Below are positions 14,072 through 31,871 of a stretch of DNA of 45,727 nucleotides, piece after piece. This DNA is from a virus. The position numbers and the translations under genes were made by a program. The DNA lies in IMG/VR virus record IMGVR_UViG_3300045988_065855, positions 1 to 45,727 of that record; one strand, written 5' to 3'. The notes beneath the pieces were generated by a model that was not told the origin of the DNA, made no database searches, and saw nothing but the letters and a program-made list of their open reading frames with translations. The first letter of the stretch is position 1, and each line of letters starts with the position of its first letter.

Positions 14072-14090
14072 TCTTTCTTCTTGCTTTGTT

Positions 14091-14465: not shown

Positions 14466-14469
14466 GTTC

Positions 14470-14628: not shown

Positions 14629-14650
14629 GGTTCGGAAAGGAGGTGGTCTC

Positions 14651-14980
14651 ATGCTTGATTTCGACTCTGTTTTCCTATCGCAGAACGAACTTGAAACGCT
14701 CCGCTCTGCGGACGCAGGAAAGGTTATAGATGCAACTCACGTTCCCGTGCCTGCGCTCCTGTCTTACGGTTTTCTGTCTCAATATCCGCTCAATAAAAAC
14801 CAGTATGTAATTACGCCTCTCGGCTGTGACTACTGCGAATACCTCGACAGGAAAGCCTTGGAGAAAAAGCGCCGCGAACGGAAAGAAAGTTTCCGTTTCT
14901 GGTTGCCCGTCATCCTGTCTAATGTCATGGCCCTTGCCGCGCTGATTATTTCAATAATCGCATTACGGAAAGCACAATAA
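14651..14980 (+). CDS. C-terminally membrane-anchored hypothetical protein (109 aa), convergent with cro
   Basis: ATG 14651 with SD AAGGAGG. C-terminal TM helix FWLPVILSNVMALAALIISIIAL. Confidence 0.7.
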   Translation: MLDFDSVFLSQNELETLRSADAGKVIDATHVPVPALLSYGFLSQYPLNKNQYVITPLGCDYCEYLDRKALEKKRRERKESFRFWLPVILSNVMALAALIISIIALRKAQ

Positions 14981-17085: not shown

Positions 17086-17778
17086 ATGAAAAAAAGATTG
17101 GTAGCCGCAGCGGCGATGATGGCTGTCTTTGTTACAAGTACAGCCGCCGCCACCGCTTATAAAAGGTCGATTACCGCCGAATACGGAATTAAAGTGGAGA
17201 TTGACGGTCAGCAGACTGTTTTGACAGACGCAAACGGAAAGACCGTTGAACCATTCACCTATAACGGTACGACTTATGTTCCCATTCGTGCCGTTGCCGA
17301 AAACCTCGGTTGTTACGTCGGCTATGATGCAAGCACGCAGACCGCCATTGTCGATAACGATGCAATGGAAGCTGTCACAGTTGCACACAAAATCACAGTT
17401 GCGAGTGACGCGCTGATGATGGACATTGAACTCCTTTATTCCAAGTGTGATATGTATAGTGGTGGTTATGTTACCGCTCAGGACGCATCGTCGTCGATTG
17501 CAAACCTGTCGAGCAATATCGAAGGGAATTTTAATTACGCAAGCGCCGCATACATAGAAGCGCAGGACAATGAAAACACATATCTTGGAGAGTTAAAAGC
17601 CGCTTATACGAAGTTTCAGAAAGAATATGCCATTGCGGTTGACGCCGTATCGAGTGCAAAAAACTATGTGTCGACCAGAAACTCCCAGTACATCATAGAA
17701 GTAAACGAAGCTATGAGAACTTTTTCTTACTCGTCTGCAAGCATGGCGAATAAATTCATTGACGATATGTGGGCATAA
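17086..17778 (+). CDS. Secreted protein with a copper-amine-oxidase-N-like (stalk) domain (230 aa); lysogeny-module moron
   Basis: Signal peptide MKKRLVAAAAMMAVFVTSTAAATA. GTTYVPIRAVAENLG motif. SD AAGGAGG. Confidence 0.7.
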   Translation: MKKRLVAAAAMMAVFVTSTAAATAYKRSITAEYGIKVEIDGQQTVLTDANGKTVEPFTYNGTTYVPIRAVAENLGCYVGYDASTQTAIVDNDAMEAVTVAHKITVASDALMMDIELLYSKCDMYSGGYVTAQDASSSIANLSSNIEGNFNYASAAYIEAQDNENTYLGELKAAYTKFQKEYAIAVDAVSSAKNYVSTRNSQYIIEVNEAMRTFSYSSASMANKFIDDMWA

Positions 17779-17785
17779 ATAAAGC

Positions 17786-17824
17786 AAAAAAACCGCCCAC
17801 CGGAGGGCAATCCGGCAGGCGGTT
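17786..17824 (-). terminator. Hairpin with a T-run on the - strand (insulates int antisense read-through)
   Basis: AACCGCC...GGCGGTT outer stem with CCGG/CCGG inner stem. The A7 run on the + strand reads as T7 after the stem on the - strand. Confidence 0.5.
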
Positions 17825-17825
17825 C

Positions 17826-17866
17826 GAGGGTAGTACATTTGAGGAACGTTACTACCCTCTTATTAT
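17826..17866 (+). terminator. Hairpin and T-rich tail after the secreted-protein gene
   Basis: Perfect 10-bp stem GAGGGTAGTA / TACTACCCTC (17826-35 / 17850-59) followed by TTATTATA. Confidence 0.45.
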
Positions 17867-17891
17867 ACGACAAAATAGGAGGTTTTGCAAC

Positions 17892-18977
17892 ATGAAAAAA
17901 GCGAACACATCCGACGGATATTTCCGCGAGACGTTCACGTATCAGGGTAAGCGTTATTCTGTCCGCGCCAAGACAGAACGCGAACTCTGGCGGAAAGTTG
18001 ACGAGAAAAAACGCCGTCTTGAAGAAGGTGTAGACGTGGTGAACGAGAACACGAGAGCCGAAAAGTGGTTCACGGACTACATCGAGACTTACAAAAAGCC
18101 GAAGGTGCAGCCGACCACCTATTCCGACCTGTGCGGTTATATCAAGAACTACATCGCGCCGGAGATTGGTTCCATGCGGCTGAAAGAGGTTCGCGCCGTG
18201 CACTTGCAGCGCATTATGAACAGCGTTGCAGGCCGTTCCGCGTCCATGGCGTGCAAGCTGCGCGATCTTATCAAAGGCGCGTTCCGGCAGGCGCGTATTG
18301 ACCGTGTAATCGTTTACGACCCCTCAGAGGCACTGGTTATGCCGGAGACCAAAAACGGCACGCACAGGGCGATTACAGCCGAAGAGCGCCAGCATATTCT
18401 GCACGTTGCCGAGACGCACCGCGCCGGTCTCTGGGTGCTGTTCATGCTGTACACCGGTGCACGCCCGGACGAGACCAGGAAAGCGACATGGGACGATGTT
18501 CGCCGGAACGAACAAAAGATCATCCTGCACTCATCAAAGACGGATTTCGGTGACAGAGCCGTTCCCCTGCATCCGGCGCTTGCTCCTCTGCTGACCGGCG
18601 GCAAAGGTTACATCTTCACGCAGCCGACCACCGGCAAGCCGCACACAAAGCATTCCATGCGCCGCATGTGGGAGAGTTTCAAACGCGCCGTAGACATCGA
18701 CATGGGAGCACGCACTTTCAAAGGCGGTGTTATCCCGGAGACTTCAAAGGTAGCCGTGGACCTCACGCCCTACTGCTTGCGTCACACCTACGCAACCGAC
18801 CTGCAAACGGCAGGCGTGCCGATCAACGTTGCAAAGGACCTGCTGGGGCACAAGGAGATTTCGATGACAGCGCGTGTTTACACCCACCTGTCTGAGGAGG
18901 CGTTCGCCGCAGCGGTAGACAAGGTGGTTGCGCTGGACACCGCACGTCGCAGCGGAAAGATAGCCCAAATCAGGTGA
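17892..18977 (+). CDS. int: Tyrosine recombinase / phage integrase (361 aa)
   Basis: ATG 17892 with SD AGGAGG. C-terminal LRHTYATDLQTAGVPINVAKDLLGHKEISMTARVYTHL carries the H-x-x-R ... H ... Y catalytic pattern. Confidence 0.9.
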   Translation: MKKANTSDGYFRETFTYQGKRYSVRAKTERELWRKVDEKKRRLEEGVDVVNENTRAEKWFTDYIETYKKPKVQPTTYSDLCGYIKNYIAPEIGSMRLKEVRAVHLQRIMNSVAGRSASMACKLRDLIKGAFRQARIDRVIVYDPSEALVMPETKNGTHRAITAEERQHILHVAETHRAGLWVLFMLYTGARPDETRKATWDDVRRNEQKIILHSSKTDFGDRAVPLHPALAPLLTGGKGYIFTQPTTGKPHTKHSMRRMWESFKRAVDIDMGARTFKGGVIPETSKVAVDLTPYCLRHTYATDLQTAGVPINVAKDLLGHKEISMTARVYTHLSEEAFAAAVDKVVALDTARRSGKIAQIR

Positions 18978-19131: not shown

Positions 19132-19180
19132 TGGTCCGAGTGACAGGATTCGAACCTGCGGCATCCTGCTCCCAAAGCAG
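19132..19180 (-). other. attP core candidate: 3' ~49 nt of a tRNA-Pro(UGG) (anticodon arm, variable loop, T arm, acceptor 3' strand, CCA)
   Basis: The - strand reads CTGC-TTTGGGA-GCAGG-ATGCC-GCAGG-TTCGAAT-CCTGT-CACTCGG-A-CCA. There is no D arm upstream. It lies 155 nt from the int stop. Confidence 0.7.
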
Positions 19181-19265: not shown

Positions 19266-19372
19266 AAATTGCATTTTCCCGCATTTATTTGCCGTCATTA
19301 TACCACAAGGCACATATAATGACAGCCATTACTACTCTATACAAAAATGCTTTTACATATAGAACATGAGAA

Positions 19373-19396
19373 AAGGGAGGGCAAACGCCCTCCCTT
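19373..19396 (-). terminator. Intrinsic terminator ending the late/post-lysis operon
   Basis: Perfect 10-bp stem AAGGGAGGGC / GCCCTCCCTT with a 4-nt loop, followed by TTTCTC on the - strand, 4 nt after the stop of the 2203-aa gene. Confidence 0.75.
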
Positions 19397-19399
19397 CTC

Positions 19400-22300
19400 T
19401 TATCCGCCGTATCCCGGAATAACCGTTCTCGGGTCAATGCTCTGTCCGTTTTTATGCACTCTCAAATGCAGATGCGGACCGGAGCTGTTGCCAGTCGAGC
19501 CGATGACGCCGACCTGCTGACCGGCACTGATCGTGTCTCCCTGCTTAACCGTAGCCTTCTGCAAGTGGCCGTACAGCGAGGTGTAGCCGTTGCCGTGATC
19601 TACTACAACATAGTTGCCGTAGCCGTTCTCATCGTAGCCGACCTCAGTAACCTTGCCGCCGCCGATACTGTCCGCCGCCTGTCCGTTCACACTGCCGCCG
19701 ATGTCGATACCGTCGTGCTGTTTGCTTCCCTTGCCCTTGTTCGTCGTAGGTGCAGTTCTGCTGCCGTAGCCGCTCGTGATAACCGCGTCGGAAACCTTCG
19801 TCGGGTTGCTGAAACCAGTTGCGCGATTGACGGAAATGCCGGTATCGCCCTTCTTGTCCTCCGGCAGCTTGCCGCCGCCGCTATAAAGGTTTTCGAACTT
19901 CTTTCTTCCGAGAGCACTCATGATTGCCGCGAACTGTTCATAGTTATCGACATTCTGAGAAACGATTTTCGCCTGTGCTTCCTTCTTCGCATTGCTTTTG
20001 CCTGCTTCGTAATCTACGCCGCTTTTCAGCGCGTTTGCAAGCATTTTAATCTGCATATACTGAGTAGCAGATATGCCGGAGCTTTCCACAGCGCCGATGG
20101 TATCTTTTTCGGTTGCGCTTCCATCGGTTCGTATCATATCAAACGTGTACTTCTCAGGCTTTGCTCGGTTCATCGAGTAGAAACCGAAGCTGTCTTCAAG
20201 CGCTGCGCGTTTTTCAGCCGAATATCCCTTCATATCGAGCCATTGAGAGAACTCGGTTGCCTCCATGGTCGCTTTATCGCTCCCCTTCTCATCAGCTAAT
20301 GTATCGTCAGCAACGCCCTTGATATACTGCGACTGGATCATCGCATCAACATACTCTTCCGCTGTTACCTTATCACTGATTTCGGTGTAATTTTCCCAGC
20401 GGCTATCCGAAACACCCTTGATAAGCAGCGTGTGATACAGGCTGTTCTTCTCCTGCTCAGAAAGCGACTTGTCGCCCTTGATGGAGTTGAACGTCTGGTC
20501 TCGCGCTTCCCAGCTTTCCATACTGTCGTTATAGCTGTCCTCCATCTCCTTGTAGGCGTAGTAAAGACCCGGCTCGATGCCGCTGTCCTTGACGGTCTGG
20601 ATCGTGCCCTCAAGCTCCTTGCCATACGTCTTGTTCGCCGCGACTGCCTTTGCGTACTTGTACACATCGGATACCGCCTCGATCTTCTCGTCGTTGGTCA
20701 TGCCCTTGTACGCCTCGGATTTGGTCAGCTTGCCGAGCGCATCCAGTGCAATCTTGCCGCCCTCGCTTGTCAGCGCGGAATACTCCTGCGCAGTGAGGAA
20801 CTTCTTCGTGCCTTTCTCAGTCTTGTAATACTTCTGCGGCTTGCTTGGCAATACAGAGCTGTCGCCGGTTGCCTGATACAGCTCCTTGAGCGCCTTTTCG
20901 GTCTGCGTGCTCTTTGCGTCTGCCAGATATCCCGGCGAAAAGAAGTTGTACGCCGCGCGTGCGAACACGTTGTCCGGCCCGTTCTTCTGTTCTCTGCCCC
21001 ATACATCCGTATATGCAGGCTGATACTGCGACAGTCCCGGGATTTTGTTCGCCTGCCGCTGTAAGAACTTCTGCACGCTCGACGGAACAGGACTGTTCTT
21101 GTCCGCATAGGTGGTTCTGCGCGTGTTGTCCACCGTCCGCGCAATCTGACCGAACAGCGTCGGCACGAACTGACCGCCAAAGTTGGTTGCAACGTTGCTT
21201 GCAATGCCAAACAGCGGATTGCTCTTGTTGTATGCCGCGCTCGTAACCGTCGAGCCAATGCCGGACAGCATCGTCATGTTGAGCATCGGGTCGAACATAC
21301 GGCTGACCGTTGCCATTGCCTGATTGAATGCCGTCTCGTCGTCGTCGTACTTCTGGTGCAGTGCTTCATACAGTTCGCCGCCCATCGCAAGCGGCACAAC
21401 AGCCGGAGACGCCCAGTCGATGGTATACGACTTGCCGCCGATGTTGATTGCATACTCCTGCTGACCCATGCCCGCGTCAAGGTTTGCTTCCTTGTCGTCG
21501 TCGCTCGAGCCTGCCGAGAAAACGCCCTGTGCTGCAAGGAACGCGCCGAGCGCTGCAATGCCCGAGCCGGTAAGACCCTGTCCGATGTGGTCGATCATCT
21601 TGGTCGCGTCCATGTTGCCCTTCTTGACCTGCACCGCGTCATAGGTGATTGCTTTCAGCAGACCTACCGGCGACAGCTCAAACGAGCGCTTTGCAACGTT
21701 GATTGGCGTGCGCTTGAACGGCACAAGTGAGCCGATAGCAACGCCCCAACCTTTGTTTCTCTTTTCAAGTTGGCCGAGCGTGTCTGCCAATGCTGACGCA
21801 TCCTGAAACGTTGCAATCTTCGCGTCCTGAATCGCGTGCTGCCGCGCCTCGTTCAGCTGCGCTTCCGTCAGATTGTTCACGTCCCAGCCGCGTGCCGTCA
21901 GGAAGTTGCCCATGCTCTTGATGTAAGATCCCTTTTTGAACCAGCTATCTTCCACATCAAGTGCCCGGGTGTTCTTGTCCATCACCTTTTGCAGCGGCTT
22001 CGGGAACAGCTTCTGCCGCTGCTTAATTTCGCTCATTTCGGTTTTGTAGGCATTGCCGCTGAGTTCCGCCTCGACGTTTGCATAGTCCGCCTTTGCAAAC
22101 TCGTGTGCCGCCTTGTTCGTATGCAGCGCACGGGTCCGCTGACCCTGCGGCAAAAACTTCTGACCGGCCGCGGAAACCTTGTGGCTTGCGTCAAGAGCGA
22201 TAGCAGAGGCAACGTTACCCATGAAGTTGCGCACATGCGTGCGCGGATTGCCGAGCATCGCAAAATAGCGCCATGCGTTCACTATGTCTCCTGCTGTCTT

Positions 22301-25300
22301 GGGAATCTGCTGCGCAACGTCATTGTAAATCTTGTCTACGACTTTCGTTCTTGCTTCGTCCGTCTCCGCGTTCAAGAACTCCTGCACCAGATCCTCGTTC
22401 AGCTTAAGGCCGTACTGGTCCGCAATATCTTCCGCCGGAACACCCTGCTTTTTCGCAGCCTTGCCCGCCTGCTTATCAAACCGCGACTGATACTCCTGCT
22501 GAATCCGCTGTACAGCTTTCTGCAAATAGTAAAGCTGGCCTTCCGGCGTGGTCTTTTTCAGCAGCTTAAACGCATTTACACCGCGTCCGAGTGCCGTACC
22601 CTGTACCGCAAGATCACCCGCGAGCTTCATTGCCGTCTGCGTGTCGCCCGCTTCAACCGCCGCCGTGTACATCATCTGACCGAGTGCAATATCATCGTCC
22701 GTAACGGCTCTGCGGCCGTCCGTCACTTCCTCCCACTGGTCAAACGCGCCCTGCCATCCCTTCTTCTGAATGGTTTTCGTCGCACCGCCGAGTGTTTTTT
22801 TCAGCGACTTCACATCATGCGAAAACAGACCTTCCGCAACATGGTTCTCCAGTGCCGGAATGAGGCTTTCCGGTGTAACGCCGCTCTCCATGATCGTTCT
22901 TGCAACATTGCTTACCCTGTCCGTGCCGTTCGTGCTCTGCGGAACGTCAATCGTGCGCGCCGGGTTCATGCCCGGTTCAATCGCGCCGTAGTCACTCACC
23001 ATCTTGGAATACGGGTCAAAGCCGCCCTTCGCCGCGCCAACCGAGCTTTCCGCATTTACCCCCGCCTTTTTCAGCTCCGGGTTAATGTCGTTCGCCTGTG
23101 CGGTCTGCTGTGTTCCCAGAGCCGCGCCCTGTGCGTTCCCCTGCATCGGCTGTGTAATTTCCGCCGGGGCATTCTGCGCGGTCTCCTGCGCCGCCTGTGC
23201 CGCCGTGCGGAGCTTCGGGTTAATGTCCCGCAGCGGCGGATTGGCCTGCACCGCGCCCTGCTGAACGCCCTGTGCCGCATTGAGGTCGAGCGGCTGTGCC
23301 GTGTTGTTGATTTCCGCCGGGGAGACAATCGCGTTTCGTCCCGCGTTCGTCTCGCGGATGTCCTCTGTGCGCGTGCCGCCGCCCGTTGTTACTTCAAGGC
23401 CGTTCGGGGTCATTTTTGCGCCCGTGTACTTCGTGTCGCCGAGCGCGTCATAGGCCGCCTGAATGCTCTGCGCGATACCGTAATCGCGTGCAAGCTCCGG
23501 CGATACCCACGAGCCGCCACCCTGCATTAAATCGTGCTGAATGAACTGCTGCGCAATGTCCGCCGCTTCCGACTTGCGTGGCTTGCGTCCGTTCTTCTTG
23601 TAAAACTGCGAGTACCAGTCCTCGTTGTTGCTTGCGCGGTAGCCCGTTCCGTCGTCGTTTCGGATGATGGAGACGCCCTGACCCTTGTAATTGCGAACAT
23701 ATTCCTCCGCCGCCTTGCGCACGGTCTCCATTTCCTGCATCGTCGGGTCTACGATTTCGGTAATGTACTGCTTGATGGGAATGCCCGTCTTGTTCGAGTT
23801 ATCAATCAGCAGTTTGGCCCATTCCATGTCGGACTGATACATACCGCCGTTGTCGTTTTCGAGGTCGATAAACGGAATAGTCCGCGTGTTCGCCTCCATG
23901 CTGATCTTGGTCTTGGTGCTGCGTCCCTCTGGCAGATACCCGGTTGGAAGACTCTGTGCTACCTGTCCGTTCGGACCTGCATACAGTACGTTTCCGCTGT
24001 TCTGCGACGCTGTGAAATCGCCGCGCATATTGCCGTACAGCACATCCGGAGTCTGAACATCGTTGAACGCACGCAGATTGTTCGCCACGCCGCCGTTCGC
24101 GTTCGCGTACAGCGTGTTTGCCGTGCGCGTGTTGCCCTCAGGGAGTGCAAGCCGCTGACCGTTCGGCAGTGCATAGACCGGGTCTACCATATCGCGGTTT
24201 GCTTCCTCGGGAGAGGTGTAGACCGTGTTCGTATCCGTGCCGTATCGGTAGTCTGCAAGGCGGTTTGCTGCACCGCTCGCGCCCTGCATGAGCGCCGACA
24301 TGGCGATACCGCCCTTTGCGCTGTCGAGCAGCTCCTTTGCTGTCGCGTTCTGCGCGTTCGGGTTGTAAGTTGCCCGCTTGAGATAGGGATTGATGAACGT
24401 GCTCGCCGCTTCCTCTGCGCCCTCGCCCAGAATATCCGCCGCGCGTCCGAGAATGCCGTTTCCGGTCTTGATAACGCCCTCACCCATGCCCGGAATGCCG
24501 CTGAACATCTTTTCCGTGCCAAGTTCGGTAAGACCTGCGCCCGTGCCGTAAAGCATCGCCTGATCGAGCGTCGCGCCCTCCCTCTGCGCTTCATTCACGC
24601 CGCTTTTCGCGCTGTCGCCGTAGATCATGGCAAGGCTTGCGCCCGGCAGCGCCATGTTTGCTGCAATGCCCGGTGCCATGCGTGCCGCTGAGCCTGCAAA
24701 TTCCTGTCCCTTTTTCGCCATGCCGACAGGCTGAGCCCATTCATTTACCGCCTGCAAGGCCTTGTCTGAGAGACTGCCCTCTAACGTTTTCTGCGCCGTG
24801 TCCTTGAGGAACTGACCTGCTTTATCTTTGCCGATAAAGTCGAGGAAATCGCCTGCCGCCTTGTTCATCGTGCCGGAAACATAGCGTCCCGCATTCTCCA
24901 CCGCGCCCGTTGCATTCAGCAGCGTGTTTGCCACGCTGCTTCCCCACGACTTGGCCGCGCTCATTTTACTGAGTGCGTTGCTTTCGTCGTTCAGCCGCTT
25001 GTACAGCTGATAGATTGCCTGCGCCTGCTTTTTCTCGTCTGCCGACATTTTATCATACTGTGCGCTGCCGTTAATGCCTGCAATCGCAAGTTTCGGATGA
25101 GTTGCGAGGTGAGCGATAGCCGCCGCCTTGTCCGCCGTGTTCCGCCCCTGCACGTCCATGTTAATGAGGTAGGGGTACTGCTTCTGCATGCGCTCGATTT
25201 CGCTGTCGAGCTCGTCTACGCGCTGCTGACGCTGCGCCTGAGAGGTTGCCGCGCGGTTGAGCGCCGCGCCGCGGGCGATCTTGACAACAGGCATGGAAAC

Positions 25301-26011
25301 GTTGGTCGTGCCGCCTGCCTTGGGGAGATAGGTTGCGCCGGTCTTGTCCTGATACGTCATGCCGAAGCTCTTGCGAATCTGGTTGTTCGCCTCGTGCAGG
25401 CGGTTCCGTTCTGCCTCGTCCGTGGTGTTGTGCCACATGAGCGAGTTTGCGTTCAGCTGGTCGATTGCTTTCTGACGTTCTTCCTTCTCGTTCCACGTCT
25501 TGCCCGTCTTGCGTGCCGTGCCGCCGCTCATCGTGCCGCTCGTGCGCTTTGCCGCGTTCGCCCTCGGCAGCGTGTTCGTTTTCGCAGGTGCGCTCATCGT
25601 GCCCGTGCTTTTCAGTGTTCCGTTGTTCTTCGCGGTCTGCAAGGCGTGCCGTGCGTTGTTCTGCCGCGCCGTGTCCTGCCGCTGCTGTCTGCCCTCGCGC
25701 GTAATGCCGACGGTGTTGCCAAGGCCGCGGACGCTCTGCTGATACGGTCTTGCGCCCGTCACCTTGTCCGCCTGTCGGACGTTCCGGTTCGTTACCGTGC
25801 TCTTGCCGCCGGTACTCCGGCTTACTGTATTGTTTCGGCTCTGCGTGCCGCTTGTTTTCTTGGTTGTATTGGTGGTTTTCTTCGTCGAGCCGCCGAGGTA
25901 GTTCGACGCGGGTTTCGACTGCTTCGAAGCATTCTTTGCGTTCCGCCGTGCCTGCTCAAGCTGCTTCTTGCGTCCCTCGCTCAGCTGATACTTTTTATCT
26001 TTGCTTGCCAT
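19400..26011 (-). CDS. Giant virion-associated (polyvalent/ejection-type) protein with C-terminal M23 peptidoglycan peptidase (2203 aa)
   Basis: C-terminus HDGIDIGG...YGNYVVVDHGNGYTSLYGHL...GSTGNSSGPHLHLRVH carries the HxxxD and HxH M23 motifs. Basic low-complexity N-terminus. Internal hydrophobic segments. SD GGAGG. Confidence 0.8.
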   Translation of the reverse strand: MASKDKKYQLSEGRKKQLEQARRNAKNASKQSKPASNYLGGSTKKTTNTTKKTSGTQSRNNTVSRSTGGKSTVTNRNVRQADKVTGARPYQQSVRGLGNTVGITREGRQQRQDTARQNNARHALQTAKNNGTLKSTGTMSAPAKTNTLPRANAAKRTSGTMSGGTARKTGKTWNEKEERQKAIDQLNANSLMWHNTTDEAERNRLHEANNQIRKSFGMTYQDKTGATYLPKAGGTTNVSMPVVKIARGAALNRAATSQAQRQQRVDELDSEIERMQKQYPYLINMDVQGRNTADKAAAIAHLATHPKLAIAGINGSAQYDKMSADEKKQAQAIYQLYKRLNDESNALSKMSAAKSWGSSVANTLLNATGAVENAGRYVSGTMNKAAGDFLDFIGKDKAGQFLKDTAQKTLEGSLSDKALQAVNEWAQPVGMAKKGQEFAGSAARMAPGIAANMALPGASLAMIYGDSAKSGVNEAQREGATLDQAMLYGTGAGLTELGTEKMFSGIPGMGEGVIKTGNGILGRAADILGEGAEEAASTFINPYLKRATYNPNAQNATAKELLDSAKGGIAMSALMQGASGAANRLADYRYGTDTNTVYTSPEEANRDMVDPVYALPNGQRLALPEGNTRTANTLYANANGGVANNLRAFNDVQTPDVLYGNMRGDFTASQNSGNVLYAGPNGQVAQSLPTGYLPEGRSTKTKISMEANTRTIPFIDLENDNGGMYQSDMEWAKLLIDNSNKTGIPIKQYITEIVDPTMQEMETVRKAAEEYVRNYKGQGVSIIRNDDGTGYRASNNEDWYSQFYKKNGRKPRKSEAADIAQQFIQHDLMQGGGSWVSPELARDYGIAQSIQAAYDALGDTKYTGAKMTPNGLEVTTGGGTRTEDIRETNAGRNAIVSPAEINNTAQPLDLNAAQGVQQGAVQANPPLRDINPKLRTAAQAAQETAQNAPAEITQPMQGNAQGAALGTQQTAQANDINPELKKAGVNAESSVGAAKGGFDPYSKMVSDYGAIEPGMNPARTIDVPQSTNGTDRVSNVARTIMESGVTPESLIPALENHVAEGLFSHDVKSLKKTLGGATKTIQKKGWQGAFDQWEEVTDGRRAVTDDDIALGQMMYTAAVEAGDTQTAMKLAGDLAVQGTALGRGVNAFKLLKKTTPEGQLYYLQKAVQRIQQEYQSRFDKQAGKAAKKQGVPAEDIADQYGLKLNEDLVQEFLNAETDEARTKVVDKIYNDVAQQIPKTAGDIVNAWRYFAMLGNPRTHVRNFMGNVASAIALDASHKVSAAGQKFLPQGQRTRALHTNKAAHEFAKADYANVEAELSGNAYKTEMSEIKQRQKLFPKPLQKVMDKNTRALDVEDSWFKKGSYIKSMGNFLTARGWDVNNLTEAQLNEARQHAIQDAKIATFQDASALADTLGQLEKRNKGWGVAIGSLVPFKRTPINVAKRSFELSPVGLLKAITYDAVQVKKGNMDATKMIDHIGQGLTGSGIAALGAFLAAQGVFSAGSSDDDKEANLDAGMGQQEYAINIGGKSYTIDWASPAVVPLAMGGELYEALHQKYDDDETAFNQAMATVSRMFDPMLNMTMLSGIGSTVTSAAYNKSNPLFGIASNVATNFGGQFVPTLFGQIARTVDNTRRTTYADKNSPVPSSVQKFLQRQANKIPGLSQYQPAYTDVWGREQKNGPDNVFARAAYNFFSPGYLADAKSTQTEKALKELYQATGDSSVLPSKPQKYYKTEKGTKKFLTAQEYSALTSEGGKIALDALGKLTKSEAYKGMTNDEKIEAVSDVYKYAKAVAANKTYGKELEGTIQTVKDSGIEPGLYYAYKEMEDSYNDSMESWEARDQTFNSIKGDKSLSEQEKNSLYHTLLIKGVSDSRWENYTEISDKVTAEEYVDAMIQSQYIKGVADDTLADEKGSDKATMEATEFSQWLDMKGYSAEKRAALEDSFGFYSMNRAKPEKYTFDMIRTDGSATEKDTIGAVESSGISATQYMQIKMLANALKSGVDYEAGKSNAKKEAQAKIVSQNVDNYEQFAAIMSALGRKKFENLYSGGGKLPEDKKGDTGISVNRATGFSNPTKVSDAVITSGYGSRTAPTTNKGKGSKQHDGIDIGGSVNGQAADSIGGGKVTEVGYDENGYGNYVVVDHGNGYTSLYGHLQKATVKQGDTISAGQQVGVIGSTGNSSGPHLHLRVHKNGQSIDPRTVIPGYGG

Positions 26012-26037
26012 ATTACGCCTCCGGTAAAAGTAAGGTA

Positions 26038-26056
26038 GGGGCGGTCATGCCGCCCC
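26038..26056 (-). terminator. GC hairpin (attenuator or RNA-stabilising element) before the giant gene
   Basis: GGGGCGG-tcatg-CCGCCCC forms a perfect 7-bp stem. The - strand is T-rich after it (TACCTTACTTTTAC). Confidence 0.4.
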
Positions 26057-26062
26057 GTGCTG

Positions 26063-27571
26063 TTAATACGTCTGTGCCTTCGAGAGCCACTGCTTGTACA
26101 TCGTCAGGTATGTCGGGTCGAGCGTCTGCTGATATGCCTGATAATATGCGTTCGCCTGGTCCATTGCGCGGTTGTAAGCCGTCTCGTTCGCGTTCAGCTT
26201 GGTGCTTTCGTCATACTGCGACTGCTGCATATCCTGTGCACGCTTGTTGTAGGCGATATTTGCAAGCGTCTGCTGTGCGTCGAGCGTCGAGTTCACGCCG
26301 AAATTGCCGGTTGCGTTGCCGTAGTTGTACAGGTTGCTGATGACGTTCTGCTTTGCCGCCTCCTGCTGTGCCAGAATGCTCTGACGCTGCTGGTACAGGC
26401 TGTTTGCAAGGTCTGCCATGCTCTGCGCCGCCTGCGTCGAGTTTCCCGCCAGTGCGCTTGCGCGGTTGTTCTCCACGCTCTGGATTGCGTTTGCACGTGC
26501 AAGCTCGTTCTGGTTGTACGCCGAGTTGTAGGCGTTGTTCTGTGCCACCAGTGCGCTTTCCGACGCGCCCTGACCGGAAATGCCTGCCGCCGCAAGCTGA
26601 CTCGGAAGGTCACGCTGTGCCGTGCGGTAGTTGATGTACGCCTGCCGCGCCGCCTCGTCGTAGCCCTGGTTGAGAGACGGGAGCATCGCGGAATACTGCT
26701 GATTGATCTGGTTTGCCATCTGGTCGTAGTACGCCTGCTGCTGCTGCTTGATTTGCTCCTGCCGGTCAAGCTCTGCCTGATACTGCTGCTCGATTGCTTT
26801 CATGTTGTTGATGTAGGTCTGTGCGTTCTTCGCCGTCGCGTCGTTGGAAAACTGGTCGAGCTTGCCGCCGTTCAGCGCGATCTTGGTTTCGCGGTCATTG
26901 AGCGACTGCTGTACATCCTGCCAGTTTGCACCGCTTGCCATCTGGTCTGCAAGCACGGTCGAATAGTCGACGTTGTTGTATTTGTCCTTTGCCTGCTGCA
27001 TCGCATTCAGTCCCGTGCTCAGTGCGCCGCCGAGCATGCTGCCGACGGTATTTGCCACACCGTTTGCCGCCGTCGGTGCTTTCCACGTGCCGGTCTTGCT
27101 GTCGTAGCTGTAGCCATGCCCCGTATAAAGCGCACGGTTCTTTGCCTCGAGGTCCTTTCTCGTTGCCGCATCCGCAGTATGCCATGCCTGAGAGTTGGCC
27201 TGTGCCTGCTTGAGCCAGTCCGGCGTGCTGACCGCCGAGGACGCGGAAGAACCGCCGGAGTACGAGCCGCCAGAGGACGAGGCTGTCGGCGCACTCCACG
27301 TGCCCGTCTTGCTGTTGTAGGTGTAGCCGTGGTCAGAGTACAGCTTCCGGTTTGCCTGCTCGAGGTTCTTTTTCGTTGCCGCGTCTGCCGTGTGCCATGC
27401 ACTCGAATTTGCCTTTGCCTGATCGAGCCACGACGAGGAAGAACCGGACGAGCTCGACGAAGATCCCCGATTAGACGAGGACGAAGAACTCGAGCTGTTC
27501 TTCTTTTTGGCCGCCGCTGCTGCTGCGGCGGCCGTGGTTGCGGCATGGATAGCCGCGCCCCAGATACTCAT
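26063..27571 (-). CDS. Low-complexity Q/N/A/S-rich protein with two tandem ~50-aa repeats (502 aa)
   Basis: Poly-A and poly-S N-terminus. Repeats WL(D/K)QA.ANS.AWHTADAAT.K.LE..NR.LY..HGY.Y.SKTGTW.APTA at aa 48-97 and 119-168. SD AAGGAGAG. Confidence 0.75.
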   Translation of the reverse strand: MSIWGAAIHAATTAAAAAAAAKKKNSSSSSSSSNRGSSSSSSGSSSSWLDQAKANSSAWHTADAATKKNLEQANRKLYSDHGYTYNSKTGTWSAPTASSSGGSYSGGSSASSAVSTPDWLKQAQANSQAWHTADAATRKDLEAKNRALYTGHGYSYDSKTGTWKAPTAANGVANTVGSMLGGALSTGLNAMQQAKDKYNNVDYSTVLADQMASGANWQDVQQSLNDRETKIALNGGKLDQFSNDATAKNAQTYINNMKAIEQQYQAELDRQEQIKQQQQAYYDQMANQINQQYSAMLPSLNQGYDEAARQAYINYRTAQRDLPSQLAAAGISGQGASESALVAQNNAYNSAYNQNELARANAIQSVENNRASALAGNSTQAAQSMADLANSLYQQRQSILAQQEAAKQNVISNLYNYGNATGNFGVNSTLDAQQTLANIAYNKRAQDMQQSQYDESTKLNANETAYNRAMDQANAYYQAYQQTLDPTYLTMYKQWLSKAQTY

Positions 27572-27630
27572 ACATATCTCTCCTTTTGGGTAAAATAAAA
27601 GCAGGCGTTTCCGCCTGCTTTCCTGTTAAG

Positions 27631-28284
27631 TTAGTGTCTCACGACGTTTTCATAGTACGCGCCGAGCTTGTCCTCTACCGCGTCCCTGTCGCACAGCCAG
27701 AACGACTTTGCCATGTCCGCGTAAAATTCCTCGTTGCCCACGCCGTGCTTTTCTGCGACCTCGCTGAGGTCACTGTACACCGCGTTCATTGCCACCCAGA
27801 ATTTCACCGGATTGCATCGCAGTCCGTGCCGCTCCATGATTGCGCTGGTCTGCTCCATCGTCCAGTGTTCGCCGGTCGAGCCGTCCGCGTTCTTCATGCC
27901 GCGCACCCACTTTTCCGCCATCTGACGGTTGAGCTTTGCGCCGCCGCCGCGTGCATAACCCTGCATTTTCTCTGTTCCGTGCGTCTCGTCTCCCACATAG
28001 GACGTACTGCCGTCACGGAAGCCGATTTGACGCATTTCCGGGTACTCGTCGTACTCCGGCCATTCCGCGCTGCTTCTCGGTGCAAACCGGCCGTTCGAGT
28101 ACCGGCGCATCTCCGGCTCTCTGCCGTGAATGCGCTCGTCGTAGTAGCTGAGCGGGTCGTCATAACCGTAGGGCTCGATATAACGGCTGCGCGGCATATC
28201 ATACCGCACGCCGTAGTGCTCCCGGCCTTCAAAATCGCTCCTTCTGTTCCGCTGCATCAGCAGCATCATCGTTCCTCGTCTCAT
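27631..28284 (-). CDS. Hypothetical protein (217 aa), R/Y/E-rich N-terminus and a globular C-terminal domain
   Basis: ATGA overlap with the upstream gene. No family recognised. Confidence 0.7.
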   Translation of the reverse strand: MRRGTMMLLMQRNRRSDFEGREHYGVRYDMPRSRYIEPYGYDDPLSYYDERIHGREPEMRRYSNGRFAPRSSAEWPEYDEYPEMRQIGFRDGSTSYVGDETHGTEKMQGYARGGGAKLNRQMAEKWVRGMKNADGSTGEHWTMEQTSAIMERHGLRCNPVKFWVAMNAVYSDLSEVAEKHGVGNEEFYADMAKSFWLCDRDAVEDKLGAYYENVVRH

Positions 28285-28667
28285 GCTGTCACCGCCGTTC
28301 CGTTAATCGAGCGCAGCGCGTCCGAGTGCGAGCAGCAGGAATTTCCGAGCATTCGGAAACTGCCGCCGGTTGCCGAAGTGACCACCCGGCAAAGGTACTT
28401 GTGCCGCGTGTCGAGGTTGAACACGGTAGCCGCCGCGCCGTTGCATTTAAGGAGCGGATACGTTACCGTGCCGTCGCCGATCGTGATGACCACCGGCGCA
28501 CCGATGATCGTCGTACTCGGGATGTTCTGCGCGATGACGATACCGTATACGCAGCCGTTCTGATAATCTCCTGCCGGAATATTTACCGTCAGTACGCCGC
28601 TTGCGTAGGTCACGCTCTGTGAGATACGCAGGTTCGGACAAAGTTTCTGTACAGGCTTGCAAGCCAT
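28281..28667 (-). CDS. Beta-rich Cys-containing hypothetical protein (128 aa)
   Basis: ATG with SD GGAGGG. Cys at positions 3, 10, 39, 75 and 93, plus a CC pair near the C-terminus. Confidence 0.7.
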   Translation of the reverse strand: MACKPVQKLCPNLRISQSVTYASGVLTVNIPAGDYQNGCVYGIVIAQNIPSTTIIGAPVVITIGDGTVTYPLLKCNGAAATVFNLDTRHKYLCRVVTSATGGSFRMLGNSCCSHSDALRSINGTAVTA

Positions 28668-28725
28668 AACTGTTCCCTCCTGTCAAAGGCAGGGGGATTG
28701 CTCCCCCCCTCCTGAATATCGTATC

Positions 28726-29484
28726 TCAGCAGCCGCAGGTGTTGCAGCCGCAGCCGGAAAAACGCAGAGCGTTTACAAGGTAATTGTTCTGTGCCTCCTG
28801 CGAAGCCGCGAACTTCAAGGCCTGATTCTCGTTCTGGAGCGCCGCGATCTTCTCCTGCTGACGGGTGTTCTCCATTGCATCCAGTCGTGCAATGATACGG
28901 TCGGTGTCGTTGTGAGCAGACTGGATAATGTCACGCGTATTGGTCGCCGCGTTGTAATTGGCATCGCAGAAACCGCGCTCCATCTGTCTCTGGGTGTCGC
29001 AGCAGCAGCCGGACATCTGCGTGCCGAGTGCCGTCAGACCGGCGGTCACGCCGTTAAAGCCGTTGTTCATGTTCTGAACCGTGTTGTTTGCAAGCTGTGC
29101 CGTCTGGTAGCCGAGCTGACATACCGAATTGTCTACGCCGTGGAAGCCGTTCGAAACCGTGTTTCCGAGCGTGTTGAAGCCGGTCAGCATCCCGTTGTTC
29201 ATGCTGTAAAAGCCGTTGCACAATCCGTCCTGAATACCGAGAACGGAACGGGACAGGTTGTTGAAGTTGAACTCGCTGCACAGGTCGGAGCGAGTAACCG
29301 CGCCCTGATAGCCTGCACCGTTCGAGCCGTTGCCGCCCCAGTTGCCCCAGCCGTTACCGCCGAAGATGAGTGCGATAATCAGAAACGCGAAAATCCAAGA
29401 GCCGTTACCGCCCCACATGCCGTCATTGCCGCCGCCGTTGTTGTCAGAGCCAAGAGCGTAGCCGGTTGCAAAATCGTTATCCAT
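28726..29484 (-). CDS. Gly/Asn-rich membrane protein with Cys clusters (252 aa)
   Basis: GGGNDGMWGGNGSW-IFAFLIIALIF-GGNGWGNWGGNG flanks a TM helix. NGF-type repeats. SGCCCD motif. C-terminal GCGCNTCGC. SD AAGGAG. Confidence 0.75.
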   Translation of the reverse strand: MDNDFATGYALGSDNNGGGNDGMWGGNGSWIFAFLIIALIFGGNGWGNWGGNGSNGAGYQGAVTRSDLCSEFNFNNLSRSVLGIQDGLCNGFYSMNNGMLTGFNTLGNTVSNGFHGVDNSVCQLGYQTAQLANNTVQNMNNGFNGVTAGLTALGTQMSGCCCDTQRQMERGFCDANYNAATNTRDIIQSAHNDTDRIIARLDAMENTRQQEKIAALQNENQALKFAASQEAQNNYLVNALRFSGCGCNTCGC

Positions 29485-29592
29485 TTGAAAATCTCCTTTT
29501 CAGTTTATTTTGATCGGAGCCGCGCGAACTCCGAACATGACAAAATCACGTCGGTTTTTCGTCAAGACCCGTCCAAACTGAAAAGAAGTTAT

Positions 29593-29820
29593 TTACTTGA
29601 TCTTCATGCCGAACTGCTGCGCAAACTGATCGAGGTCAATCCCTCGCTCCTTTGCAACGTTCATTGCCATCTGCCGCAGCGCGTCCGGGCTCTTGCCCTG
29701 CATGCTCTGCATCAGCTGACCGACCATCGGATTATTGCCTGTCATCTGCTGCAAAAGCGCCGTCGGATTCCCGCCGTGCTGCATCAGCTGCAAAACCTGC
29801 ATCATCGGGTTATTCATCAT
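29593..29820 (-). CDS. Met/Gln-rich small protein (75 aa)
   Basis: ATGA coupling to the upstream gene. MMNNPMMQVLQLMQHGGNPTALLQQMTGNNPMVGQLMQSMQG. Confidence 0.65.
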   Translation of the reverse strand: MMNNPMMQVLQLMQHGGNPTALLQQMTGNNPMVGQLMQSMQGKSPDALRQMAMNVAKERGIDLDQFAQQFGMKIK

Positions 29821-30158
29821 GCCTCACTGCCTCCCAGCTTGTCGCATAAGGTGTTGAACCGTGCTTTCAGCTCGTCAAACTCGCCCCTCGGTACATAGTC
29901 CGGTTTTGGCGCGTCCTGCATCTGCACCCGGCTGTATGCCGCGAAATCCGCGCAGCCGGTTTGAAGGTTGAGCTGCTTTGTGTAGATATAGCCGTGCGCC
30001 GTGTCCGGCATGATGGTTAAAGCGCCCGAGAAATCGGTCTGAACCGCTCTTGCCTCCTCAACGCTTGCCACTGGACGCACAATATGTTGTGGGTACTGCG
30101 GTATCTGCACATTCTGTTGTGGATACTGCTGTGGATACTGTGGATAACCGCAAGCCAT
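29817..30158 (-). CDS. Protein with a Q/P/Y-rich N-terminus (113 aa)
   Basis: MACGYPQYPQQYPQQNVQIPQYPQH followed by a globular part. TAATG coupling with the upstream small ORF. Confidence 0.7.
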   Translation of the reverse strand: MACGYPQYPQQYPQQNVQIPQYPQHIVRPVASVEEARAVQTDFSGALTIMPDTAHGYIYTKQLNLQTGCADFAAYSRVQMQDAPKPDYVPRGEFDELKARFNTLCDKLGGSEA

Positions 30159-30313
30159 TATCCGTGCACCTCCGTTTCGTGAAGGGAGCGCTCCTTGTAG
30201 GCAAGGTACTCGTCGAGATACTTTGTGTTCCCCGCCTCGCGGTAGTCCTCAGCAATGCGCCGCGCACACTGCTTGTCGTAGCCGATACGTTCCAGTCTTT
30301 GTTCGTAGCTCAT
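30158..30313 (-). CDS. Small hypothetical protein (51 aa), first gene of the post-lysis operon
   Basis: Not in the track. ATG 30313 with SD GAGAGGGG. The stop overlaps the next ATG (TAATG). A TATAAT box sits 27 nt upstream (30345-30340, - strand). Confidence 0.5.
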   Translation of the reverse strand: MSYEQRLERIGYDKQCARRIAEDYREAGNTKYLDEYLAYKERSLHETEVHG

Positions 30314-30369
30314 GCTTTATCGCCCCTCTCTATGCGTCTATTATAGCGCATCGGGAGCGCGAAAACCTG

Positions 30370-30570
30370 TCACAAAACTTTCAGTATTTTCCGTTTGATG
30401 TTCCGCAGCCGCCGGTAAACCGTTGCCTCGCTCATATGCAGCGTGTCCGCAATCTGAATAACAGAACGCGCCGTAACTCGTAAATCGAATACGGCGCGTT
30501 CCTCGTCTGTAAAGTTGCATTCCTGCCGGAGGTATTCCACCTCCGGTCTTGTAAACTCCGTTAATTTCAT
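30370..30570 (-). CDS. Sigma-70 region-4 / LuxR-type HTH mini-regulator (66 aa)
   Basis: FTDEERAVFDLRVTARSVIQIADTLHMSEATVYRRLRNIKRKI is a sigma r4-like HTH. SD AAGGGGA. Confidence 0.7.
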   Translation of the reverse strand: MKLTEFTRPEVEYLRQECNFTDEERAVFDLRVTARSVIQIADTLHMSEATVYRRLRNIKRKILKVL

Positions 30571-30624: not shown

Positions 30625-31362
30625 TTAGCCGTACAGGTGCGCTCTGTCGTTAATCACCAGAATGCGCATCAGGCTTTCGGTCAGTGCAAGGTTGCCGTTC
30701 TCGTCGCCCTGCAAAAAGCCCTTGTTTACGAGCTTCTGCACGGTCTCCTGTGCCCACTGCGGGCACTCCTTCGGCCTGTTGTAAACCTTCTCCGCCGCGC
30801 TCCTGATCTCCTGCTTTGCAATCGCGCGGGTCTGTGCTTCCGTCATATCTTCAACCCTTTCAGTAAGTCGTTTCTTGAATGCCGTGAATTTGCTTTCGTC
30901 CCTCACCCACGGTTCTGGGCATGCCTTGCCGGTCACGTCGTAGTGCCGTACAACACGGTCAGCAGGAACATTGTACCGCCCCATGAGATACTTCACGAGC
31001 TCGACCGCCCTGTCGACCGTTGCCGCCGTGATGGTGTACCTGCCGCCCACGATGTCCGAGCACATTTCTACGCCGATGCTGTTGCGGTTCATGCAGATGC
31101 CGTGCAGCGGATGATGTCTGCTCTCGAGCGCACCGCCGCAGTGCCACGCCGTGTCGTCGTCGCGGACAGACTGCACAATGCTTTTCTCGTCGACAAAGTA
31201 GTGCGCACTTGCGCTCAGATTGCCGTTCTGAAAGTACCGTCCGTTGTTCGCCGCCGTGTCGCCGTTGTTCGCCGTGTAGTGCATGACGATGTAGCGAATG
31301 CCGTTGCCGCCGCGCCCTGCGCGGTAATTACTCGGGTCACAGGGGATGTAATCAATCTTCAT
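30625..31362 (-). CDS. Endolysin: N-acetylmuramoyl-L-alanine amidase (Amidase_2/PGRP) with a C-terminal putative wall-binding segment (245 aa)
   Basis: IRYIVMHYTANNGDTAANNGRYFQN...ASAHYFVDEKSIVQSVRDDDTAWHCG matches the Amidase_2 pattern. Follows the holin. Confidence 0.85.
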   Translation of the reverse strand: MKIDYIPCDPSNYRAGRGGNGIRYIVMHYTANNGDTAANNGRYFQNGNLSASAHYFVDEKSIVQSVRDDDTAWHCGGALESRHHPLHGICMNRNSIGVEMCSDIVGGRYTITAATVDRAVELVKYLMGRYNVPADRVVRHYDVTGKACPEPWVRDESKFTAFKKRLTERVEDMTEAQTRAIAKQEIRSAAEKVYNRPKECPQWAQETVQKLVNKGFLQGDENGNLALTESLMRILVINDRAHLYG

Positions 31363-31627
31363 GGCTGTCCTTCCTCGGCACCGAGTACGTCAACGCCTTC
31401 TCGCTGTCACTTACGCCGGCCGTCGTCGGGTCAATAAAGACCGACAGCACCGCAAGGCACATCGTGCAAAGCTGCACCGGGTTCGAGAGCACGCCCTTGA
31501 TACCCAGCCAGACCGCGCTCCACGAGGTAAAGGTCTGCGGGTCAACGCCGATGGCCGTGATAGCGACCGACAAAACGCCGACCCAGAACCACGGGTTTTT
31601 CATACGTACCGGAATATTAACCTTCAT
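31352..31627 (-). CDS. Holin (91 aa)
   Basis: ATG 31627 with SD AAGGAGG. Two TM segments (NPWFWVGVLSVAITAIGV, VQLCTMCLAVLSVFI). Immediately upstream of the endolysin. Confidence 0.7.
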   Translation of the reverse strand: MKVNIPVRMKNPWFWVGVLSVAITAIGVDPQTFTSWSAVWLGIKGVLSNPVQLCTMCLAVLSVFIDPTTAGVSDSEKALTYSVPRKDSHED

Positions 31628-31871
31628 GCTGCATTTCCTCCTTTTCCAAGTCCTCAATACGGTGGTTTGCCACGCGAACGCGCTCATCCATCACGGCAAA
31701 GTCCTGTTCGAGCTTATACGTGCGCGTGATGAGGTTGTTGTGCTTCTCCACCTTCTTTTCCAGCTGCTCAATGCGGTAATTCGTGAGATTGCTCGACAGC
31801 GCAATACCGCCGAGCGTTCCCACCAAAGTCCCCACCAGACTGAGCGCCGCTGTAAAAACTTCAGCCGACAT
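31617..31871 (-). CDS. Membrane/coiled-coil lysis-cassette protein (XhlA-like, 84 aa)
   Basis: N-terminal TM helix FTAALSLVGTLVGTLGGIAL followed by a coiled coil (RIEQLEKKVEKHNNLI...RIEDLEKEE). Confidence 0.55.
   Translation of the reverse strand: MSAEVFTAALSLVGTLVGTLGGIALSSNLTNYRIEQLEKKVEKHNNLITRTYKLEQDFAVMDERVRVANHRIEDLEKEEMQHEG

Follow-up and report, generated by a model that had tools for sequence, protein, structure and literature searches.

The post-lysis gene block of a temperate phage probably joins a putative internal-virion-protein module to a portable accessory cassette

Internal virion proteins (IVPs) of phages are known to host muralytic domains as well as ones meant to reach the cytoplasm (Hardies et al. 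2016, PMC4819975), and polyvalent proteins have been described as packaged and injected (Iyer et al. 2017, PMC5512222). As a working model we take the gp14/gp15/gp16 ejectosome of T7, in which gp16, a large helical muralytic protein carried in the head, lengthens the short tail so that it spans the envelope (PMC4819975, PMC10172136); the cargo-ejection model of phage crAss001 is comparable (PMC10172136). Here we compare these systems with a nine-gene block in a phage genome, the IMG/VR record IMGVR_UViG_3300045988_065855, whose whole stretch of 45,727 nucleotides is referred to as the window. The block runs on the minus strand from 30570 to 19400 and ends in the gene of a 2203-residue protein, called the giant protein below. 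A sequence-only reading of this DNA had described one 11-kb operon of nine genes behind the lysis cassette, and our open reading frame (ORF) and composition checks bore out the nine ORFs, their positions and sizes, their compositional oddities and the holin and endolysin genes upstream. Of 20 related IMG/VR contigs, 19 keep this gene order from endolysin to integrase, with protein identities of 54-100%, and the block is therefore not a chance pattern of ORFs. We consider it likely that the block consists of three separable units: a regulator pair (HTH66 and g51), a portable set of five genes that lies outside the ejection machinery (cassette B; g113, g75, g252, g128 and g217), and a set of internal virion proteins (module A) formed by g502 and the giant protein. 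This view is built on homology, domain content, synteny and modularity, from which packaging, ejection and muralytic action are deduced. The parts of module A are as follows.

19400..26011, minus strand: giant protein, 2203 aa, IVP-D-like, with a C-terminal M23 domain
25502..26011, minus strand: basic low-complexity N-terminus of the giant protein, residues 1-170, net charge +30
20582..23074, minus strand: all-alpha core of the giant protein, residues 980-1810 (about 830 aa)
21518-21574, minus strand: hydrophobic helix inside the core, residues 1480-1498, from a hydropathy scan
19430..19720, minus strand: M23 metallopeptidase domain, residues 2098-2194 (Pfam, 5e-27)
26063..27571, minus strand: g502, Ala/Ser/Gln/Asn-rich and Cys-free, the constant partner of the giant protein

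The core of the giant protein carries most of the argument. In a tblastn search of cultured phages the core found only two weak hits, one of which is gp34 of the Roseobacter phage CRP-118 (Autographiviridae). This protein of 1211 aa is encoded behind the tail tubular proteins A and B, a pair of small proteins and one of 697 aa, and ahead of the fibre region, which is the position of gp16 in T7. A profile of the core matches CRP-118 gp34 in hhalign (Prob 97.3, E = 2e-11, 359 columns) and in hmmsearch (9e-16), and the alignment shows a PF(K/V)(K/R)TPxN motif and a hydrophobic GLTG...LG..LA..G helix common to both. CRP-118 gp34 is homologous to the "internal virion protein (D)" (IVP-D) of 58 cultured marine T7-like phages, including Syn5 (gp45), P60 (gp34), S-CBP2, SS120-1 and many pelagiphages. 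When 150 gut cores were compared as a family with eight marine IVP-D proteins, hhalign gave Prob 99.7 and E = 1e-26 over 485 columns. The AlphaFold2 (AF2) model of the core is all-alpha (pLDDT 76.8), and a Foldseek search with it against BFVD, in which predicted models are compared with predicted models, retrieved internal virion proteins of S-RIP1, S-CBP3 and S-CBP2 (Synechococcus) and of Eyrgjafa (Pelagibacter) at E values of 1e-11 to 1e-12, TM scores of 0.45-0.50 and TMq values of 0.33-0.50, as well as uncultured polyvalent proteins with E values down to 3e-52. Judged by these profile and model comparisons, the core of the giant protein is homologous to IVP-D of marine T7-like podoviruses, one of which, Syn5 gp45, is reportedly verified as a virion component.

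Set beside the marine proteins (Syn5 gp45, P60 gp34, the IVP-D of pelagiphage HTVC011P and CRP-118 gp34), the giant protein shares the homologous alpha-helical core and the podovirus type of genome, and some gut relatives of the window phage also share the gene position behind the nozzle-type gene. In contrast, the giant protein is about twice as long, has a basic N-terminus and an N-terminal half rich in Gly/Ala, ends in an M23 domain, and belongs to a temperate phage of a Gram-positive host in which the gene stands after the lysis cassette, beside the probable attP. The core family itself is large. A query of residues 960-1960 against a representative library of 1.84 billion proteins hit 7965 clusters (at 50% identity), 3398 of them below 1e-30, and the core, about 800 aa long, sits near the C-terminus in homologous proteins of 850-4300 aa. 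No match to the core family was found in Pfam, PHROGs or NCBIfam, and a 1006-aa homolog that consists of the core only has no PHROG match either. Among 13 long and 22 viral homologs the core is fused to LPD3, MuF_C, ART-PolyVal, PBECR3/5, ddrB-ParB, LPD1, LPD23, a DUF6782 metallopeptidase, MutS_I and SNF2/Eco57I-methylase domains, whereas the fusion with M23 is confined to the window's own clade among the homologs examined. On plasmids the core is nearly absent, with one weak hit. Proteins of 3000-4300 aa with this core and such effector domains are the polyvalent proteins, which are predicted to be injected together with the DNA (Iyer et al. 2017, PMC5512222); the window protein differs from them in carrying M23 only, and the core is not one of the LPD families of Pfam. 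A Pfam search found no LPD or effector domain in the giant protein and Peptidase_M23 as its only catalytic domain. On its domain content the giant protein is thus a relative of the polyvalent proteins and not polyvalent itself.

The genomic context of the core also speaks for a virion function. The window bears an exact 99-bp direct repeat at its two ends (1-99 = 45629-45727), which is a signature of circular assembly, so that it represents a complete circular genome of 45,628 bp; nearly all genes are on the minus strand. The late genes come in the following order, with coordinates for the lysis genes.

Terminase large subunit (Terminase_3), then portal (phrog_156, with a weak P22_portal match)
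Proteins of 271 aa and 132 aa, then major capsid protein (Phage_capsid_4)
Protein of 206 aa (weak SU10-adaptor match), then g628, a 628-aa "virion structural protein" (phrog_3287)
Collagen-like fibre of 623 aa, then a 136-aa protein, an XhlA-like protein, holin and Amidase_2 endolysin
31352-31687: holin (phrog_297)
30625-31362: Amidase_2 endolysin

No tape measure, tail tube, sheath, baseplate, tail chaperone or tail terminator gene is present in this complete genome, and the virion module is therefore of the podovirus type. In distant gut relatives (33-46% identity) the core gene lies within the structural module, and in five of them (L096, L098, L102, L103 and L092) it stands between adaptor/g628-type tail genes and fibre genes. 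The order in L102, for example, is major capsid (phrog_267), adaptor-like (phrog_13046), g628-like, proteins of 128, 536, 355 and 654 aa, the 1006-aa core protein, fibre-like genes and integrase. The giant gene of the window does not occupy this IVP-D position after the adaptor/nozzle and before the fibre, as it comes after the fibre gene, the lysis cassette and cassette B. Since the core gene is inside the structural module in relatives, the post-lysis placement in the window is best read as a rearrangement in one lineage. The split of the virion genes by the lysis cassette, which the sequence-only reading had singled out as atypical, is indeed unusual, but it appears lineage-specific, and crAss-like phages also interleave lysis and virion genes.

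Cultured relatives were found neither by megablast of the structural region nor by tblastn with the portal, the latter hitting only two uncultured contigs. A first scan of genome contigs for relatives gave no match and a second one found four prophages, in Agathobaculum/Butyricicoccus. The host is a Gram-positive member of the Oscillospirales, the phage is temperate, and its relatives are Agathobaculum and Butyricicoccus prophages, among them those of Agathobaculum sp. Marseille-P7918 and A. ammoniilyticum (L108 and L111).

The M23 domain is the only part of the giant protein with a recognised catalytic function. The match to PF01551 (E = 5e-27) covers model positions 2-96 of 96, that is, the full length, and both zinc motifs are present, HxxxD (HDGID at 2099) and HxH (HLH at 2180), so the canonical C-terminal M23 peptidase noted before stands, as does the basic low-complexity N-terminus with a net charge of +30 in its first 170 residues. 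The internal hydrophobic segments were, however, reduced to one strongly hydrophobic helix (1480-1498). A PDB sequence search with the giant protein returned M23 chains only (1e-13 to 1e-14), tblastn of the whole protein against cultured phages gave M23 matches only, no lytic transglycosylase (SLT) or lysozyme domain was found in Pfam, PHROGs or NCBIfam, and a NCBIfam search of the block gave M23 and helix-turn-helix (HTH) matches only. Two further hints at a structural role are a match of phrog_1067 ("minor head protein") to residues 1767-2191 and the complete lack of Cys in the giant protein and g502, whereas the neighboring g252 and g128 contain 11 and 7. A large protein database holds hundreds of close homologs of the giant protein. 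Conservation varies along its length: residues about 1000-1900 are 83-98% conserved among relatives, whereas the N-terminal 150 residues, 700-950 and 1900-2100 are variable and the N-terminus is the least conserved part. In the close relative L020 the giant protein (L020 10001-17755) has 2584 aa; residues 1-554 align at 30% identity, 555-928 do not align, and an insertion of about 345 aa, with no Pfam domain within it, follows residue ~1190. The replaced N-terminal half and the insertion point to modular recombination within the giant protein.

The gene g502 is located directly upstream of the core protein in L020, L044, L049, L062, L082, L100, L101 and L110. Moreover, g502 and the giant protein share a motif of about 48 aa, ANSxxWH...D...L...N...G.TY..KTG, which occurs twice in g502 (residues 49-96 and 120-167) and once in the giant protein (183-231, at about 25319-25465), with BLASTP E values of 1e-7 and 9e-7. 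The motif may be a docking or wall-binding element, and g502 is a candidate for a second internal virion protein with an IVP-C-like role.

Because the core is homologous to IVP-D, is fused to polyvalent effectors elsewhere and is encoded in the tail module of some relatives, the giant protein is most likely packaged in the head and ejected, with the C-terminal M23 domain as its muralytic part. The sequence-only reading had placed it among the virion-packaged ejection or polyvalent-type proteins of phages without a tail tube, and both the IVP-D homology and the fusions of the core to LPD3, MuF_C, ART-PolyVal and PBECR domains support that placement. In the mechanism that we propose, module A would have been displaced from its usual place behind the nozzle gene, and the giant protein and g502 would be packaged in the head. 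At adsorption both would be threaded, largely unfolded, through the portal and the short tail; the M23 domain would cut peptidoglycan cross-links in the Gram-positive (Oscillospirales) wall, and the IVP-D-type core with its hydrophobic helix would lengthen the short tail, forming a channel that reaches and crosses the membrane so that DNA can enter. Binding of DNA is a possible role of the basic N-terminus. The resemblance to T7 gp16 would then be one of a large, helical, head-packaged muralytic protein; unlike the window protein with its C-terminal M23 endopeptidase, gp16 has an N-terminal lytic transglycosylase, and no homologs of gp13, gp14 or gp15 are recognised in the window. The tail-knob protein gp13 of phi29 is a small protein with an N-terminal lysozyme domain, and it carries an M23 (LytM-type) endopeptidase domain to open the Gram-positive wall at entry. 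An M23 domain on a presumed virion protein that acts on a Gram-positive wall is common to gp13-type hydrolases and the window protein, but in the latter M23 is the sole recognised catalytic domain and lies at the end of a 2203-aa IVP-D-like protein in which no lysozyme domain was found.

Several results weigh against this assignment. Neither the core nor the marine IVP-D set is detectably similar to T7 gp16 (hhalign Prob below 1%, with a single gp16 sequence and thus low sensitivity), and the core shows no detectable similarity to the single sequence of N4 gp50. The core profile has no significant match among solved structures by sequence, and the best Foldseek hit of the core in PDB (E = 0.06; membrane transporters and HEAT-like repeats) was judged to be noise. 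The name "internal virion protein" is largely positional in the marine phages, so that the link to experimentally studied ejectosomes is indirect. In profile comparisons g502 has no detectable homology to IVP-C, and comparisons of the N-terminal half of the giant protein and of g502 with T7 gp13-15, Syn5 gp42-44 and CRP-118 gp31-33 found nothing. Finally, the giant gene adjoins the probable attP, which is a classic position of cargo genes. It should be noted that links between internal virion proteins are notoriously hard to detect (Hardies et al. 2016, PMC4819975).

The five genes between g51 and g502 behave differently from module A. They are listed here in transcriptional order.

29817..30158, minus strand: g113, cassette B gene 1; Q/P/Y-rich N-terminus and conserved C-terminal domain (phrog_21718, 1.6e-6)
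29593..29820, minus strand: g75, cassette B gene 2; 75 aa, Met/Gln-rich (16% Met, 16% Gln)
28726..29484, minus strand: g252, cassette B gene 3; Gly/Asn-rich, N-terminal hydrophobic helix (phrog_16490, 3.5e-36)
28281..28667, minus strand: g128, cassette B gene 4; predicted beta-sandwich with 7 Cys (AF2 model)
27631..28284, minus strand: g217, cassette B gene 5; R/E/Y-rich N-terminus and DUF7841 domain (PF25223, 1.4e-33)

A scan of IMG/VR for the g128 family found at least 560 loci, and in the 80 loci examined the string g113>g75>g252>g128>g217 is nearly invariant; in at least 20 of these 80 it is directly followed by an integrase. For g128 itself, hundreds of homologs were retrieved. The cassette is carried by hundreds of Clostridia phages from the gut, with differing morphotypes, and in part also by crAss-like phages. 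It is evident that cassette B and module A can be found without each other. On the one hand, L020 shares the capsid, adaptor, g628, lysis, g502 and giant genes with the window, but its endolysin gene is followed directly by g502 and all seven small genes are missing. On the other hand, the cultured Clostridium perfringens siphovirus CPD1, which has a tape measure gene, carries homologs of g113 (CPD1_036, 7e-21), g75 (CPD1_037, 4.5e-16), g252 (CPD1_039, 2e-31) and g128 (4e-15) in its non-structural region, among early-type genes and 3.4 kb beyond the holin, and has no core protein. The prophages L105-L107 show the order holin, 72-aa gene, sigma-r4 HTH, g113, g75, g252, g128, 102-aa gene and integrase, and g502 and the core protein were not found in the 10-kb flank examined. 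Just beyond the integrase of L105 and L106, at 13158-14800 on the minus strand, there is an anti-CRISPR-like locus with AcrVA2-like and AcrIC5 Pfam hits. Because L020 lacks cassette B and cassette B lacks the core elsewhere, the block resolves into the regulator pair, cassette B and module A. The claim that the 11 kb form one functional unit is thus not upheld, as the five genes from g113 to g217 are independent of g502 and the giant protein, and membership of the small low-complexity proteins in an ejection module is not supported either, since the cassette often occurs without the giant protein, including in siphoviruses that bear tape measure genes. Owing to its presence in both sipho- and podo-type phages and its variable position relative to the structural genes, cassette B was treated as an accessory cassette of non-structural genes. 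Where cassette B borders on module A, the 59-nt gap between g217 and g502 holds a weak hairpin resembling a terminator (6-bp stem and T-run) at 27599-27616 on the minus strand.

As to function, the libraries offer only phrog_16490 and phrog_21718, both "unknown", and DUF7841 for cassette B, with no NCBIfam hit; no papers on DUF7841 were found, and papers on C. perfringens phages gave no proteomic information on the cassette homologs. In PADLOC, g51 through g502 had no hits, and the matches were confined to HTH66, whose HTH hit that of CARF-protein models. The product of g252 has a hydrophobic helix at residues ~29-42 and a C-terminal half that resembles a coiled coil; some of its 11 Cys cluster at the C-terminus. 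No other product of the block is as conserved as g128, with 94-100% identity across relatives whose giant proteins are only 68% identical; its AF2 model is all-beta (pLDDT 78), and the only Foldseek hit in PDB was a marginal one, to a baseplate/fibre chain of Pa193 (E = 0.018), which is insufficient to assign a role. Our guess, drawn from sequence features, is that cassette B may act at the host membrane or envelope and may be built around the bitopic, Cys-rich g252. Spore-coat-like, bacteriocin-like and condensate-forming proteins were also considered for cassette B and set aside for lack of evidence.

Among crAss-like phages, cr125_1, cr52_1, cr53_1 and cr115_1 carry adjacent homologs of g252 and g217 right after the holin gene, and in several such phages, cr125_1 among them, the pair directly follows the holin and a LysB-like gene. 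The cargo region of these phages (crAss001 gp45, gp46 and the virion RNA polymerase; cr125_1 gp021-gp032) resembles the window in that lysis genes are interleaved with virion or cargo genes and giant ejected proteins are encoded after a run of small genes; it differs in that only two of the five cassette B genes are common to both. No homologs turned up within the first 50 kb of crAss001. For the cr125_1 region, where code 11 leaves the reading frames broken, the core was not detected either, but its absence is not established. The annotated long genes of cr125_1 (NC_055900; L021/L022), one of them for a 4500-aa protein, are split into numerous short ORFs when read with genetic code 11, which suggests stop-codon recoding.

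Four other explanations of the block were considered. The giant protein could be cargo expressed in the lysogen, for example a secreted or wall-associated M23 bacteriolysin or toxin, and not a component of the virion. Its gene adjoins attP and the integrase gene and has its own strong terminator, source annotations call the family murein endopeptidase, and elsewhere the core is fused to toxin-like domains. Nevertheless, there is no apparent signal peptide, the N-terminus being basic and of low complexity without a hydrophobic segment; the core is homologous to internal virion proteins, the homologs of relatives lie within structural modules, and the giant gene shares strand and composition with the late genes, with no separate promoter found upstream of it in the promoter scan. 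We therefore regard lysogenic cargo as improbable. An even smaller chance, close to negligible, is given to the idea that the giant protein belongs to a long-tailed phage, as its tape measure or as a lysin at the tail tip. M23 motifs are frequent in tape measure proteins, the size and helical content of the giant protein would fit, and the M23 region is hit by phrog_23188 ("tape measure") and by several endolysin PHROGs; these matches, however, cover the M23 domain only, the complete genome lacks tail tube, chaperone, terminator and baseplate genes, and the core aligns with podoviral IVP-D and not with tape measure proteins.

The other two explanations concern the small proteins. It could be argued that the whole nine-gene block is one ejection module in which the small proteins are analogs of T7 gp13 and gp14 ejected with the giant protein, as all nine genes point the same way and either overlap or stand close together, their order is kept in 19 of the 20 close relatives, a membrane helix is common to g252, T7 gp14 and crAss001 gp45 (PMC10172136), and homologs of g252 and g217 lie near virion genes in crAss-like phages. 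This is unlikely given that many phages, including siphoviruses with tape measure genes, carry cassette B without the core protein, that L020 has the same head, tail and giant-protein genes without the cassette, that no profile similarity of the cassette B proteins to IVP-A, IVP-B or IVP-C of T7, Syn5 or CRP-118 was found, and that the cassette of CPD1 lies in the non-structural region. Slightly better odds, though still poor ones, go to a set associated with lysis or release, with g252 as a spanin-like or holin-accessory membrane protein and the others as its partners. Cassette B follows the holin and endolysin genes in most loci, the g252 and g217 homologs of cr125_1 directly follow the holin and LysB-like genes, and g252 combines an N-terminal membrane helix, a coiled coil and Cys residues, a combination reminiscent of i-spanins. 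The hosts, however, are monoderm Oscillospirales/Clostridia, which need no spanin, the CPD1 cassette is located 3.4 kb from the lysis genes among early-type genes, L020 lyses without cassette B, and no lysis-family matches were found in Pfam, PHROGs or NCBIfam.

The division of the block into a regulator pair, cassette B and module A, which we prefer to these four, links an unannotated gut-phage family of 7965 clusters with the marine T7-like internal virion proteins and the "polyvalent protein" effectors, three groups that are kept apart in the annotation resources searched. It offers a testable model for the breaching of the wall, and for the delivery of DNA and effectors, by temperate podoviruses that infect Gram-positive anaerobes of the gut, and it separates out cassette B, which would otherwise be mis-filed as ejection apparatus or random morons. 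As far as our searches show, several points appear to be new: that the core of the huge gut "polyvalent" family is, on sequence grounds, of the IVP-D type of marine T7-like phages, that in a Gram-positive temperate lineage this core is fused to a C-terminal M23 domain and the module has moved to the attP-proximal end of the genome, and that cassette B is a separate, widespread and uncharacterised unit. It is conceivable, although we hold it only tentatively, that cassette B is a self-contained, undescribed phage system with a new envelope or host-takeover function and, separately, that the IVP-D-type core is a general chassis for injected effectors in thousands of uncultured gut podoviruses.

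The remaining features of the block and its downstream border are given below.

30370..30570, minus strand: HTH66, 66 aa, sigma-70 region-4 / LuxR-type HTH (GerE 6e-6, Sigma70_r4_2 1e-4, TIGR02937, sigma70-ECF region 4, 8e-6)
30340..30345, minus strand: TATAAT hexamer in the gap between HTH66 and g51, read from the sequence
30158..30313, minus strand: g51, 51 aa, acidic and Tyr-rich, co-occurring with HTH66
19369..19400, minus strand: intrinsic terminator overlapping the stop codon of the giant protein; 14-pair stem with GGGAGGGC/GCCCTCCC, then a T-run
19132..19175, minus strand: tRNA 3'-half-like sequence, probable attP core, with GGTTCGAATCC T-loop and ...ACCA end
17769-18977, plus strand: tyrosine integrase (phrog_1, 8e-57)

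HTH66 and g51 co-occur in L108-L110 and in most cassette B loci, and in relatives HTH66 precedes either cassette B or the giant-protein module; in the Agathobaculum prophages HTH66 and g51 are followed by different small genes and then by the giant protein. No family match was found for g51 in Pfam, PHROGs or NCBIfam. From its domain matches, HTH66 is likely a transcription regulator heading the post-lysis genes, and HTH66 and g51 would form a sigma-region-4-type DNA-binding pair at the head of whichever genes follow the lysis cassette. The operon had been said to start with a sigma-r4-type HTH gene and a TATAAT box. The type of HTH66 agrees with this, but the hexamer follows HTH66, in the gap before g51, instead of preceding it, and at 30345-30340 the promoter scan showed neither a full -35/-10 site nor a recognisable -35 partner. 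Similarly, "tightly coupled" describes only part of the block, in which three junctions overlap (-1, -4 and -4) whereas five are gaps of 51-108 nt.

At the other end, the terminator claimed for the operon beside attP was recovered as the 14-pair stem at 19400-19369. No complete tRNA was found by ARAGORN and Rfam gave nothing over 17-32 kb; from its resemblance to a tRNA 3' half, the sequence at 19132-19175 is the probable attP core. Of the promoter-like sites in this region the best one, CTGTCA-17-TATAAT with an extended TG, lies just downstream of the terminator, at 19297-19325 on the minus strand.

Some minor observations concern other parts of the genome. PDB searches with g628 and the portal gave nothing useful. 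The portal (39676-41613) contains a short insertion at residues ~236-291 with weak zinc-ribbon matches (DZR, DUF6980; the Nop10 zinc ribbon in PDB). Nine-base periodic repeats at 33666-34146 in the fibre gene correspond to collagen-like Gly-X-Y tracts (Pfam Collagen, 3.7e-17). In the early/replication region there are two pairs of imperfect direct repeats, one at 6587-6633 and 6891-6937 (47 nt, 85% identity) and the other at 13494-13529 and 14521-14556 (36 nt, 78%).

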